From Dehalococcoidia bacterium (GTDB lineage: Bacteria; Chloroflexota; Dehalococcoidia; GIF9; UBA5629): a DNA stretch of 64,000 bases. The position numbers and the translations under genes are program-made. The DNA is taken from contig JBEKIW010000001.1 in NCBI GenBank assembly GCA_050011565.1, forward strand, positions 96,001 through 160,000, written 5' to 3'. Of this stretch, positions 50,042 through 51,765 are shown piece after piece; the stretch's first letter is position 1, and each line of letters opens with the position of its first letter. Under the pieces are notes generated by a model that saw nothing but the letters and a program-made list of their open reading frames with translations, had not been told where the DNA came from and did not search any database.

Positions 50042-50508
50042 AGGTAGAGAAAGCTAAAATAAATGACGCTCAGCGGATACATGAGTTGGTCAACAGTTTC
50101 GCCGACAAAGGCGAGATGCTGCCGCGGGCACTAAGCGAGATATACGAGAACCTGCGCGACTTCTTCGTCGTCAGAGATAAAAATAGTCAGCTAATCGGCT
50201 GTGTGGCGCTTCATATTAACTGGGCTGATTTAGCTGAAGTTAAGTCTTTAGCCGTAAGTGAAGATAAGCAGGCTAAGGGCTTGGGCTCAGTGCTTATTAA
50301 AGCTTGTCTTGATGAAGCCAAAGAGTTGGGGATTCCTACGGTATTTTGTCTCAGCTACAAGCCAGGTTTCTTCGAGAAATACAATTTCCGCAGGGTTGAT
50401 AAAATGGAACTGCCGCGCAAGGTATGGTCGGAATGCTACCGCTGTCCCAAGTTTCCGGATTGCGATGAGGTGGCCCTTATCTATAATTTTAAATCAGGTG
50501 TTATTTGA
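50038..50508 (+). CDS. GNAT N-acetyltransferase (short ArgA-like)
   Basis: MLPR.LSEIYENLRDF, AEVKSLAV, LP.KVWSEC..CPKF..CDE. Confidence 0.85.
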   Translation: MKVEKAKINDAQRIHELVNSFADKGEMLPRALSEIYENLRDFFVVRDKNSQLIGCVALHINWADLAEVKSLAVSEDKQAKGLGSVLIKACLDEAKELGIPTVFCLSYKPGFFEKYNFRRVDKMELPRKVWSECYRCPKFPDCDEVALIYNFKSGVI

Positions 50509-50594
50509 TGTAGAATTACTTTGAAGGTGGCTACACAAAGCTAAAGAGCAAAGAAGAAGGCGAATATGCCGTTGATTGTAAGGAGAAGACGAAA

Positions 50595-50984
50595 GTGAAT
50601 AAGACGAACGTCCCACTAGTAGCGCTAATAATTAGCCTGATTATGCTAGCTCAGCTTATTGGAGGAATCGGTTGTCTGGTCAGGAAATCTGAATCTGTGC
50701 CTCTTATTGACACAGCGCGCGAGGCTGTAAATGCCCGGATAAAATGGCTGGACGAGCAGAAATTTGAAGGACCTGATCCACTAGCTCCCCTCGAGGTCAA
50801 CGTAGACAACGTGGAGTCCGAGAAAAGCAGGATAGGCAGAGATGGTGATGTACATGCAGGTTTACCTGCAGGTATAGATATAGGTGGAGGTGGAGGTATA
50901 GGTATAGGTGCAGGTATAGATGGAGGTGGAGGTATAGGTGGTATAGGTGGAGGTGGAGGCGGAGGCTGAGGTTGTGGAGGTTAA
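50595..50984 (+). CDS. Gly-rich lipoprotein, candidate selenoprotein (UGA 50967-50969 read as Sec; otherwise ends at 50969)
   Basis: Signal peptide with lipobox-like GIGC; poly-Gly tail continues past UGA as G-C-G-G-TAA; SECIS-like hairpin follows. Confidence 0.65.
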
Positions 50985-51013
50985 CTGACCGTGCAGTCAG
51001 TACACTATCCTCA
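50967..51013 (+). promoter_or_regulatory. Putative bacterial SECIS element
   Basis: Upper stem ACTGAC/GTCAGT with loop CGTGCA 20 nt after UGA; lower pairing TGAGG/CCTCA includes the UGA. Confidence 0.55.
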
Positions 51014-51027
51014 AATGGAGGTCGAAA

Positions 51028-51765
51028 ATGAAGAAGCCAATTCTAAAGATTTTGTTAATATCGCTCATGCTACTTAGCATATCAACTGGCTGTGTGTCCA
51101 AAAAGGCTATCACGGACGAGTTTGTTGATTGTTTGCTAAAGACGAATGCCGGCACTGTAGACAAGGTAGATTCGGATTTACAGATTATAGACCAGAATCT
51201 GTATATTACTGAAGAGAAGTTATTGAAACTGGAGCAAGTGATGGTTCCGGCGCTAGAATGGATAGAGAATCAGAAGGTCAAGTTGCTCGAGGAGCATAAG
51301 TATGGTTCATGGCATAGTCGGGTGACACCGGAAAGTTTATCTGAATTCAAAAATGACCAGTACGAGGTAACGGCACTGGAACTTTTTGTCCATGGAATCG
51401 GTACTCCAAATCAGGAGTTCGACACCGTAATTAAGGTTACGGATTTATCCACAAAAATACAGAGCGATCAGGAAACGATTGAGAATGAACTTAAATGGCG
51501 GAAGTCAACTCTTGAGCAACAGAGGCAGGTAGAATTAGAAGAGGGACACCTATCCACGTCAACCCTCCTAAGTGTCATTGAGCACTCGGGGGACTGGGAG
51601 ATACGGGAGATTAACAGCACCACTTACAGCATCAGCGGTCCTGGTTTAGGAATGGACGGAAAACTTACTACAGGTAAGTGGACCTACGACAGAACCTCGA
51701 AAGAAATTATACCCGCCGATACCCAGAGTGCGGCGCTACAGGACGTACTCTCGGGTGGATTGTAG
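51028..51765 (+). CDS. Hypothetical lipoprotein
   Basis: MKK + hydrophobic stretch + ISTGC lipobox; SD GGAGG; coiled-coil-like segments. Confidence 0.75.
   Translation: MKKPILKILLISLMLLSISTGCVSKKAITDEFVDCLLKTNAGTVDKVDSDLQIIDQNLYITEEKLLKLEQVMVPALEWIENQKVKLLEEHKYGSWHSRVTPESLSEFKNDQYEVTALELFVHGIGTPNQEFDTVIKVTDLSTKIQSDQETIENELKWRKSTLEQQRQVELEEGHLSTSTLLSVIEHSGDWEIREINSTTYSISGPGLGMDGKLTTGKWTYDRTSKEIIPADTQSAALQDVLSGGL

Follow-up and report, generated by a model that had tools for sequence, protein, structure and literature searches.

We examined a window of 64,000 nucleotides from a Dehalococcoidia bacterium (contig JBEKIW010000001.1 of assembly GCA_050011565.1), in which a first-pass annotation, made from the letters alone, had pointed out a small lipoprotein gene as a candidate selenoprotein gene. 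The proposed coding sequence lies on the forward strand at positions 50595-50984 and consists of 129 codons and a TAA stop, with an in-frame TGA as codon 125. Translation up to the TGA (open reading frame 50595-50969) gives 124 amino acids and read-through gives 129. The codons at 50958-50984 are GGC GGA GGC TGA GGT TGT GGA GGT TAA, so that the run of Gly codons passes through the TGA exactly as annotated, and the read-through C-terminus is ...GGGGGGG-U-G-C-G-G, where U stands for selenocysteine (Sec). The proposed Sec codon occupies 50967-50969 and the codons behind it (GGT TGT GGA GGT, for G-C-G-G) occupy 50970-50981, with the Cys codon at 50973-50975. The true stop TAA lies at 50982-50984 and its last A is at the same time the first base of the stem of a hairpin. 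We consider it likely, from the sequences compared below, that the UGA of this 129-residue prolipoprotein is decoded as Sec: the genome encodes the Sec machinery, the TGA and the Gly-Cys codons after it are retained in relatives, and no variant letter was seen at the site, all of which supports the annotation on this point.

The protein begins with a predicted lipoprotein signal peptide (50595-50675, forward strand) that contains the lipobox LIGGIG-C (...LAQLIGGIG-C), with Cys27 encoded at 50673-50675. Cys27 is invariant in the alignment of relatives, and a lipobox-like pattern, defined by a custom regular expression, was present in 59 of 65 database relatives. The genome encodes lgt (148 bits) and lspA (107 bits), and the features by which bacterial lipoproteins are recognized were all found. 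We infer from the sequence that the signal peptide is cleaved and that Cys27 is lipidated. Further along, at 50700-50837 (forward strand), conserved columns and a model of the complex with the neighbouring protein (see below) delimit a helix (residues ∼36-60, motif IKWLDEQKF) and a strand (residues ∼70-81, NVDNVESEKSRIG). In three relatives (L024:1333-1743, L033:303-731 and L034:431-859) the helix segment carries an internal duplication of ∼31 residues (GKSE...V.WLGEQIGYRG), and the docking helix is thus present twice (alignment A2, columns 40-72). The remainder of the chain before the UGA is a Gly/Ile/Val-rich, low-complexity tether of ∼40 residues (50847-50966, forward strand) that is encoded by 6- to 24-nt tandem repeats and differs in length, always in frame, among relatives and populations.

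Upstream of the GTG start, the forward strand carries a ribosome-binding site, AAGGAG, at a distance of 9 nt (50580-50585) and, 5' of the two-gene unit that the small gene forms with the gene for a 245-amino-acid lipoprotein, a promoter-like site (TTGCGA, 16 nt, TATAAT; 50460-50487) with 10 of 12 consensus matches, which is a match to the consensus only.

The annotation had also named a sequencing error as a way in which the TGA could be spurious. Contigs from three other sequencing runs of different studies (X3, X4 and X5) contained no differing letter at 50967-50984; because these runs agree at the site, the TGA is not an assembly error. The contigs of X4 and X5 contained in-frame variants of the tail, a 6-nt insertion (AGGTAT) and a 9-nt deletion at window positions 50893 and 50931, and the length of the tether is therefore polymorphic in natural populations. 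Contigs from an RNA run (X20) covered parts of 50579-50926 only, upstream of the TGA region, which is at best a hint that the small gene is transcribed.

The hairpin behind the TGA and the selenocysteine machinery

A SECIS-like (selenocysteine insertion sequence) hairpin with a 6-bp stem, ACUGAC/GUCAGU, and the loop CGUGCA lies at 50984-51001 on the forward strand and forms in the computed folds; in the DNA its parts are ACTGAC (50984-50989), CGTGCA (50990-50995) and GTCAGT (50996-51001). Its geometry is exactly the one annotated: 20 nt separate the UGA from the loop, and G-U occupy loop positions 2-3. The annotation had also described a longer lower stem closed over the UGA by TGAGG/CCTCA, and this held in part. 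The segment CCUCA (51009-51013, forward strand) is able to pair with UGAGG at the Sec codon and does so in the minimum free energy fold of the 60 nt that start at the UGA, but the pairing is absent from the fold of 81 nt; CCTCA is retained in 7 of 11 aligned sequences, i.e. it is partly conserved, and we regard the lower stem as optional. We rejected the identification of the hairpin as a terminator, as it has no T tail and is not listed in the terminator scan.

The genome assembly (2.0 Mb, 8 contigs, 99% complete) contains a complete set of the Sec genes that the annotation had named for checking. We found tRNA-Sec (72.1 bits, cut-off 47), selA (572 bits), selB (368 bits) and selD (396 bits, with an in-frame TGA of its own), all on contig C4 and all above the curated cut-offs; the statement that no sel genes occur in the 64-kb window was thus correct. 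The genes selB and selD were present in 4 of 4 carrier genomes and in 36 of 76 genomes of the taxonomic family, a co-occurrence that adds little because the carrier genomes are kin.

Other selenoprotein genes in the genome provided a reference for the hairpin. A gene for ArsS (TIGR04167, 384 bits) at C1:490204-491208 of this genome (G000; L044:305-1309) is matched through its Sec site; the C-terminal part reads ...GCTAGGGGS-U-FGKTLPV, with Sec 8 residues from the C-terminus, and the true stop TAG lies inside the SECIS. Further selenoprotein genes are those for FdhA (HCARL-U-HSP) and an FlpD/MvhD-like protein (VCG-U-HPGECH), at G000 C1:400992-402248 and C1:336343-336711 (loci L050 and L053). 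The selD SECIS has a 7-bp stem and the loop CGGGA, which starts 19 nt from the U of the UGA; the ArsS SECIS has a 6-bp stem and the loop CGUGUA, which starts at 20 nt. The candidate hairpin has a 6-bp stem in the window, where the loop CGUGCA starts 23 nt from the U, and in the relatives, where the loop CGGGCA or CGGGUA starts at 20 nt. The selD, ArsS and candidate hairpins have a closing C-G pair in common and a loop of the type CGKG(N)A. As the loops of the FdhA and FlpD-like SECIS (GGUCU and GGA) start at 21 and 26 nt, the spacing of the candidate is within the range of this organism. In the window as in the relatives, the apical loop contains G and begins 20-23 nt from the U of the UGA, as expected of a SECIS.

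We scanned 3.99 Mb of strand for hairpins with a closing C-G pair, a CGKG(N)A loop and a stem of at least 5 bp, and found 21 of them in the whole genome. A TGA stood 16-26 nt ahead of the loop in 8 TGA-hairpin pairs, and the only long frames with a TGA and this type of hairpin were selD, ArsS and the candidate gene. The chance expectation for a TGA with such a hairpin was 0.07 over the 1220 TGA-ended frames of at least 100 codons, a number that is weakened by the fact that the pattern was set after all three hairpins had been seen, which leaves their likeness untouched. A further match at the pstB/phoU junction, and two short frames with TGA and hairpin that lie inside other long frames, were taken as chance; the matches outside the three genes fall within the frames of other genes.

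Relatives of the small gene and Cys-ended counterparts

The small gene has a narrow family: members occur in 4 of 76 other genomes of the taxonomic family (one false hit was dropped), in 4 of 201 other genomes at the level of the order and at 8 loci in a metagenome scan, while a set of 5.8 billion proteins yielded 56 relatives of the small protein. Clustering at 50% gave 13 clusters at E ≤ 1e-10, and a separate scan of genome contigs for the small protein recovered only G005 again. Two candidate relatives were rejected: G057/L028 is an unrelated protein of 358 amino acids, and P0067 (660 amino acids) is a chance match through a coiled coil.

The 3' end was visible in 13 DNA sequences, namely the window, G004, G005, L029-L036, G091 and G060, and the counts of stop codons rest on these 13, as ∼50 further relatives are known as proteins alone. 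The first stop was TGA in 13 of 13, two of which (G091 and L036) do not differ over the part that was read and hence are not independent. Genome-wide, TGA closes 430 of 1429 (30%) open frames of at least 200 codons. The TGA is followed by GGY TGY in 10 of the 13 sequences, with T/C changes at the two third positions only and in several combinations, so that the comparison of homologs proposed by the annotation found both the TGA and the Gly-Cys after it retained, with changes at wobble positions. Between the Cys and an in-frame TAA, TGA or TAG there are 0-2 codons more (for GG, G, P or nothing). Similarity thus continues beyond U, yet this test is a short one, with only 1-5 residues past U. 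In L034 the sequence is S-C-G-U-G-G-G, in which the Cys precedes the TGA at unchanged spacing, and the N-terminal half of the protein is nearly identical to that of L033, which reads U-G-C-G-G. Among the 65 database relatives, 55 end in GGG and 5 in xCG, and 49 of the 59 relatives with a lipobox have no Cys beyond the lipobox Cys in the mature part as called. The same TGA occurs in three genera of the taxonomic family and in metagenomes from several habitats.

The hairpin was retained in all relatives of the TGA form, and G091 has a different 6-bp hairpin with an unrelated stem sequence at the same position. We applied selenoprotein criteria after Haft & Gwadz (10.1101/2022.07.06.499078), extended by a SECIS and the machinery, under which a family should have at least 10 examples with TGA in 100% of them; here TGA was found in 13 of 13, again with G091 and L036 the same in the stretch read. 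Taken as evidence for Sec, the pattern of conservation in the sequences of the relatives is suggestive, not decisive.

We also read the DNA upstream of paralogs of the partner gene (described below) at 25 loci, and at 5 of the 25 a small Gly-tailed open reading frame lies directly upstream. The C-termini of these counterparts are ...SGGGG-C-G-C-N-D in L077, ...GG-C-S-D-S-C-G-Q in L067 and ...GGGGGGGGE in L075, each closed by TAG. L083 reads ...GGGDGY, TGA, TCT and then TAG, and L074 reads ...GGGGGGGGGG, TGA GGC TGC and then TAG, with the hairpin behind it again. L074 (G060 contig C32) looks degenerate, in that its small open reading frame has no signal peptide and no helix and its match to the partner spans positions 2-85 only; TGA GGC TGC TAG and the hairpin are still retained. 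At L083:2333-2695 (minus strand; G019 contig C13), the TGA TCT TAG precedes a hairpin of 14 bp whose 12-nt loop is rich in A/U, and the TGA there could mark a further Sec form (U-S) or simply be a stop.

The counterparts share the order of helix, strand and Gly tail, and have a membrane-helix anchor and no lipobox. When L077 was taken together with 15 database relatives (n=16), 11 of these Cys-form proteins had G-G-C-x-C followed by 1-2 residues, 2 had a single Cys and 3 had none. G-G-C-x-C is what one would expect of a U-x-C end in a version without Sec, and MAFFT sets C-G-C beneath U-G-C. At the three TAG-ended loci whose DNA was read, no comparable G-loop hairpin was present in our own reading of folds and sequence. 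The Cys forms have a conserved C-x-CC ... C-P-x-C ... C between helix and strand (A6 columns ∼78-107; L077 and P0141-P0155), which may be a metal or disulfide module and is missing from the TGA forms. They had no match to a Pfam-A or NCBIfam family above the cut-offs.

The partner lipoprotein

The gene directly 3' of the small gene (51028-51765, forward strand) encodes a lipoprotein of 245 amino acids of no known family, and it holds this position in every relative with a contig that is long enough. Its AlphaFold2 model has a pLDDT (predicted local distance difference test) of 92.3 and shows a unit of one long helix and a four-stranded sheet that occurs twice. No match to this fold was found by Foldseek in the PDB at E ≤ 1e-3; a VIA wide search gave a best Z of 8.1 that concerned long-helix hairpins only and was uninformative, and the sequence matched no Pfam-A or NCBIfam family.

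A model of the complex of the small protein with this partner scored 0.85 as compared to 0.64 for the best control, a mark that 58 of 80 solved complexes and 2 of 110 mismatched pairs attained. The model runs shared at least 93% of contacts, with a partner pLDDT of at least 76. The modelling thus supports, short of demonstrating it, docking of residues ∼36-81 of the small protein onto the two long helices and the sheet edge of the partner. Cys35 of the partner was considered as a fixed redox mate and rejected, being conserved among close relatives only. One database protein (P0066, 52 amino acids) consists of the first ∼40 residues of the small lipoprotein fused to the last ∼12 of the partner; it probably arose by a deletion or is a chimera from assembly.

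Among the 76 other genomes of the taxonomic family, 17 contained paralogs of the partner; at the level of the class, the partner was found in 1 of 400 other sampled genomes. In some paralogs (proteins P0130, P0133, P0135, P0139 and P0140; loci L061, L062, L063 and L079) the partner domain is combined with an N-terminal FHA domain (PF00498, PF16697), and the fusion runs through a hydrophobic membrane segment, which suggests that the extracytoplasmic domain can feed a phospho-threonine signalling protein. Four partner paralogs each contain one TGA inside the open frame (G077:C1:858700-859443, G076:C3:95655-96401, G075:C18:7245-7982 and G024:C2:273429-274178).

Interpretation, alternatives and comparison with known systems

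If the UGA is decoded as Sec, the hairpin at 50984-51001 would recruit SelB carrying Sec-tRNA(Sec), and Sec would be inserted at codon 125. The hairpin begins at the last base of the true stop and has most of its length in the short spacer ahead of the partner gene, an arrangement that ArsS uses too. After its export and lipidation at Cys27, the product would be a mature protein of ∼100 residues at the outer face of the cytoplasmic membrane, where residues ∼36-81 (helix and strand) would dock onto the co-transcribed 245-amino-acid lipoprotein and the Gly-rich tether of ∼40 residues would present the tip -G-U-G-C-G-G.

The main alternative is that the TGA is a plain stop and the protein has a poly-Gly end. 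The hairpin would then be an intercistronic RNA element that could serve mRNA stability, processing or translation control of the downstream lipoprotein, and the GGY TGY codons would be conserved spacer derived from Gly-repeat DNA. Several observations weigh against Sec and on the side of such a stop. Among the close relatives, conservation extends over all 43 nt of the spacer, so that the 6 nt after the TGA count for less as evidence than they seem to, and these relatives are kin and not independent of each other. The RNA folding that the annotation had proposed as a check came out divided: this type of hairpin is rare in the genome, but the folding energy of the 81 nt was at chance level (z = 0.19; 107 of 200 shuffles folded as well). 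Positions 50400-51200 gave no Rfam match at E ≤ 10 other than one to a miRNA, which we attribute to chance, and the stem shows no covariation within the close group. No member with Cys in place of Sec was found among the 65 proteins of the close family, and G091 and L036 read U-R and then TGA, with no Cys past the first TGA, G091 being a distant relative of 35% identity. As to the Cys-ended counterparts, hhalign gave a probability of 15-17% (E ∼1.5e-3) for the TGA and Cys forms over the N-terminal 53-61 columns only, and because this sequence homology is weak, the correspondence of Sec and Cys rests on synteny and shared architecture. The dyad is also not universal, since C-x-C is missing from 5 of the 16 Cys-form proteins and from L075, one of the paralogous small proteins that end in Gly/Glu without a Cys. 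Finally, base-pairing is conceivable between the CCUCA behind the hairpin and GGAGG, the ribosome-binding site of the partner gene.

A plain stop nevertheless leaves much unaccounted for. TGA comes first in 13 of 13 sequences as opposed to a genome-wide usage of 30%, and the two codons past it change at wobble positions only. The Cys has moved to position -2 in L034 and in five database proteins, the counterparts end in G-G-C-x-C, and the hairpin, which is not terminator-like, is of a rare type shared with the selD and ArsS SECIS that was not seen after the TAG-ended counterparts. We therefore judge a plain stop to be improbable. It is far less probable still that the TGA is a recent GGA-to-TGA mutation in a slippery Gly-repeat tract whose 3' end is decaying. 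The tail is indeed built of 6- to 24-nt tandem repeats, it varies in length among relatives and within populations, and the GGN periodicity goes on past the TGA; however, the same TGA is found in three genera and in metagenomes of several habitats, the insertions and deletions are in frame, and the N-terminal domain, like the partner gene, is intact and conserved.

Given Sec at the tip, the Sec-x-Cys dyad could form a selenenylsulfide. Our tentative proposal, made by analogy, is that the tip is a tethered minimal redox or covalent-carrier arm, which would capture or exchange thiol/disulfide, sulfane-sulfur or similar soft electrophiles; we favour such an arm because of the analogies with the SoxY arm and with CXC catalysts that are set out below. 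The main alternative use of the same Sec is as part of a soft-metal site (Cu(I), Hg(II), Ni(II), Zn(II) or similar), which would make the protein a tethered metallochaperone or, with the partner, a sensor. Selenolate-thiolate and C-x-C pairs are good soft-metal ligands, the mid-protein cluster of the Cys forms looks metal-like (zinc-finger-type Pfam models match it weakly, at E 0.03-0.09 and always short of the cut-off), and the FHA fusions of the partner domain suggest sensing. In addition, several metal-linked selenoproteins with UxC, UxxU or CU motifs appear in the accessible part of a 2026 review table (PMC13188914). On the other hand, no metal transporter or resistance gene adjoins the two genes in the window, where the neighbours encode, by their translations, NAD kinase, an acetyltransferase and a Nudix hydrolase, and two ligands on a floppy arm would by themselves make a weak site. 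We rate a metal site as less likely than not, and somewhat below the redox or carrier arm.

The annotation had not recognized the architecture among known selenoprotein families, and within the Pfam and NCBIfam models this holds: the read-through protein matched no family in Pfam-A and NCBIfam release 20 at E ≤ 1. This covers the Pfam and NCBIfam models of selenoprotein families in the accessible part of the review table (PMC13188914), and NCBIfam contains the models cited for most of the families there; in the same part of the table, a DUF1573 protein and a TlpA-like protein are the sole entries with a UGC motif. We found no description of such a protein in the literature, although an earlier listing may exist in BSepDB (PMC13326102) or in Haft & Tolstoy 2025. 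It looks like a new selenoprotein family with an unusual architecture.

The nearest family in kind is SaoC (NF040734), which the accessible text of its description (10.1101/2022.07.06.499078) presents as the Cys-Cys-COOH / Cys-Sec-COOH (lipo)protein of the SAO system. SaoC proteins, according to that text, are likewise small, exported, mostly lipoproteins and formerly 'dark matter', with a Cys/Sec pair at the extreme C-terminus, a gene called to the UGA and a G-loop SECIS hairpin after the end of the coding sequence. The protein studied here does not belong to SaoC, as it has no NCBIfam match at E ≤ 1 and unrelated neighbours. From what is given there, SaoC differs also in having an adjacent CU and no poly-Gly tether, whereas the window protein has U-x-C; in its nine-gene ABC-transport neighbourhood in Clostridia, as compared to a two-gene unit in Dehalococcoidia; and in that most SaoC are Cys forms, while all close members seen here as DNA are TGA forms.

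A functional analogy is offered by SoxY of the SoxYZ heterodimer, which, as far as the available parts of the sources go (PMC6067878, PMC5336275), carries sulfur intermediates on the Cys of a carboxy-terminal GGCGG arm. By that account SoxY is an exported carrier subunit that comes with a small second protein and has its one reactive, Gly-flanked Cys on a mobile C-terminal arm, which the proposed build of the window protein resembles. The likeness in sequence is limited to the last four residues, G-C-G-G, and the analogy is one of function only. In contrast to the window protein, SoxY is described in those parts without Sec and without a lipid anchor, and with a short arm as opposed to ∼40 residues; the window protein is not a SoxY, having no Pfam or NCBIfam match at E ≤ 1.

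The CXC catalysts are a third comparison. In the accessible part of the report on them (10.64898/2026.01.27.701630), the disulfide potential of a Cys-Gly-Cys peptide is close to that of protein disulfide isomerase (PDI), and the peptide acts as a catalyst when disulfides are formed, cleaved or rearranged. Designed CXC-linker-anchor peptides are able, by the same account, to take over from PDI in yeast, and the pKa of the CXC thiol on a flexible linker is high (∼8.5). By analogy, we infer that Sec would overcome this high-pKa handicap of a flexible CXC. The peptide (H-Cys-Gly-Cys-NH2) and the designs, as described there, share with the window protein an anchor, a linker and a C-G-C-type dyad; they are synthetic, were placed in the yeast endoplasmic reticulum and have the dyad N-terminal, while the window protein is natural and known from sequence.

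Within the same genome, ArsS is alike in having Sec after a Gly run near the C-terminus and a 6-bp SECIS with a closing C-G pair that overlaps the true stop. It differs in being a cytoplasmic radical SAM enzyme of 334 amino acids (arsenosugar biosynthesis) of unrelated sequence, and it serves here as the in-genome reference for SelB. Among eukaryotic proteins, SELENOK and SELENOS have a membrane anchor, a Gly-rich disordered segment and Sec 2-3 residues from the C-terminus, and thioredoxin reductase has a flexible C-terminal Cys/Sec redox arm (GCUG). These differ from the window protein in being eukaryotic, in the type of SECIS, in orientation and in compartment, and they are unrelated to it in sequence, the window protein having matches to 0 Pfam families.

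If Sec is confirmed, the small gene would represent a selenoprotein family of unusual build, whose members are lipid-anchored and carry Sec, four residues from the end, on a low-complexity glycine arm. Such a family would be missed by usual gene callers and homology searches because little follows the UGA, the tail is of low complexity and the SECIS lies mostly outside the coding sequence. It would also be a natural test case in two respects, as a minimal protein around a Sec/Cys dyad for useful chemistry and for the function of a SECIS beyond the true stop in bacteria. A wider and more speculative reading, which we hold to be less likely than not, is that of a new class of surface selenoproteins whose sole functional group is the Sec-x-Cys dyad on a long poly-Gly tether, making them natural counterparts of the anchor-linker-CXC minimal catalysts or carrier arms like that of SoxY, and which, as part of a two-lipoprotein module, report or process extracellular redox or chalcogen species to phospho-threonine signalling; the partner would then be the larger subunit, with a new fold, and would be FHA-wired across the membrane in sister lineages. 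According to the accessible part of a 2026 database paper (PMC13326102), Dehalococcoidia include some of the most selenoprotein-rich bacteria, and the finding points to a two-lipoprotein module in the Dehalococcoidia of peat and sediment.

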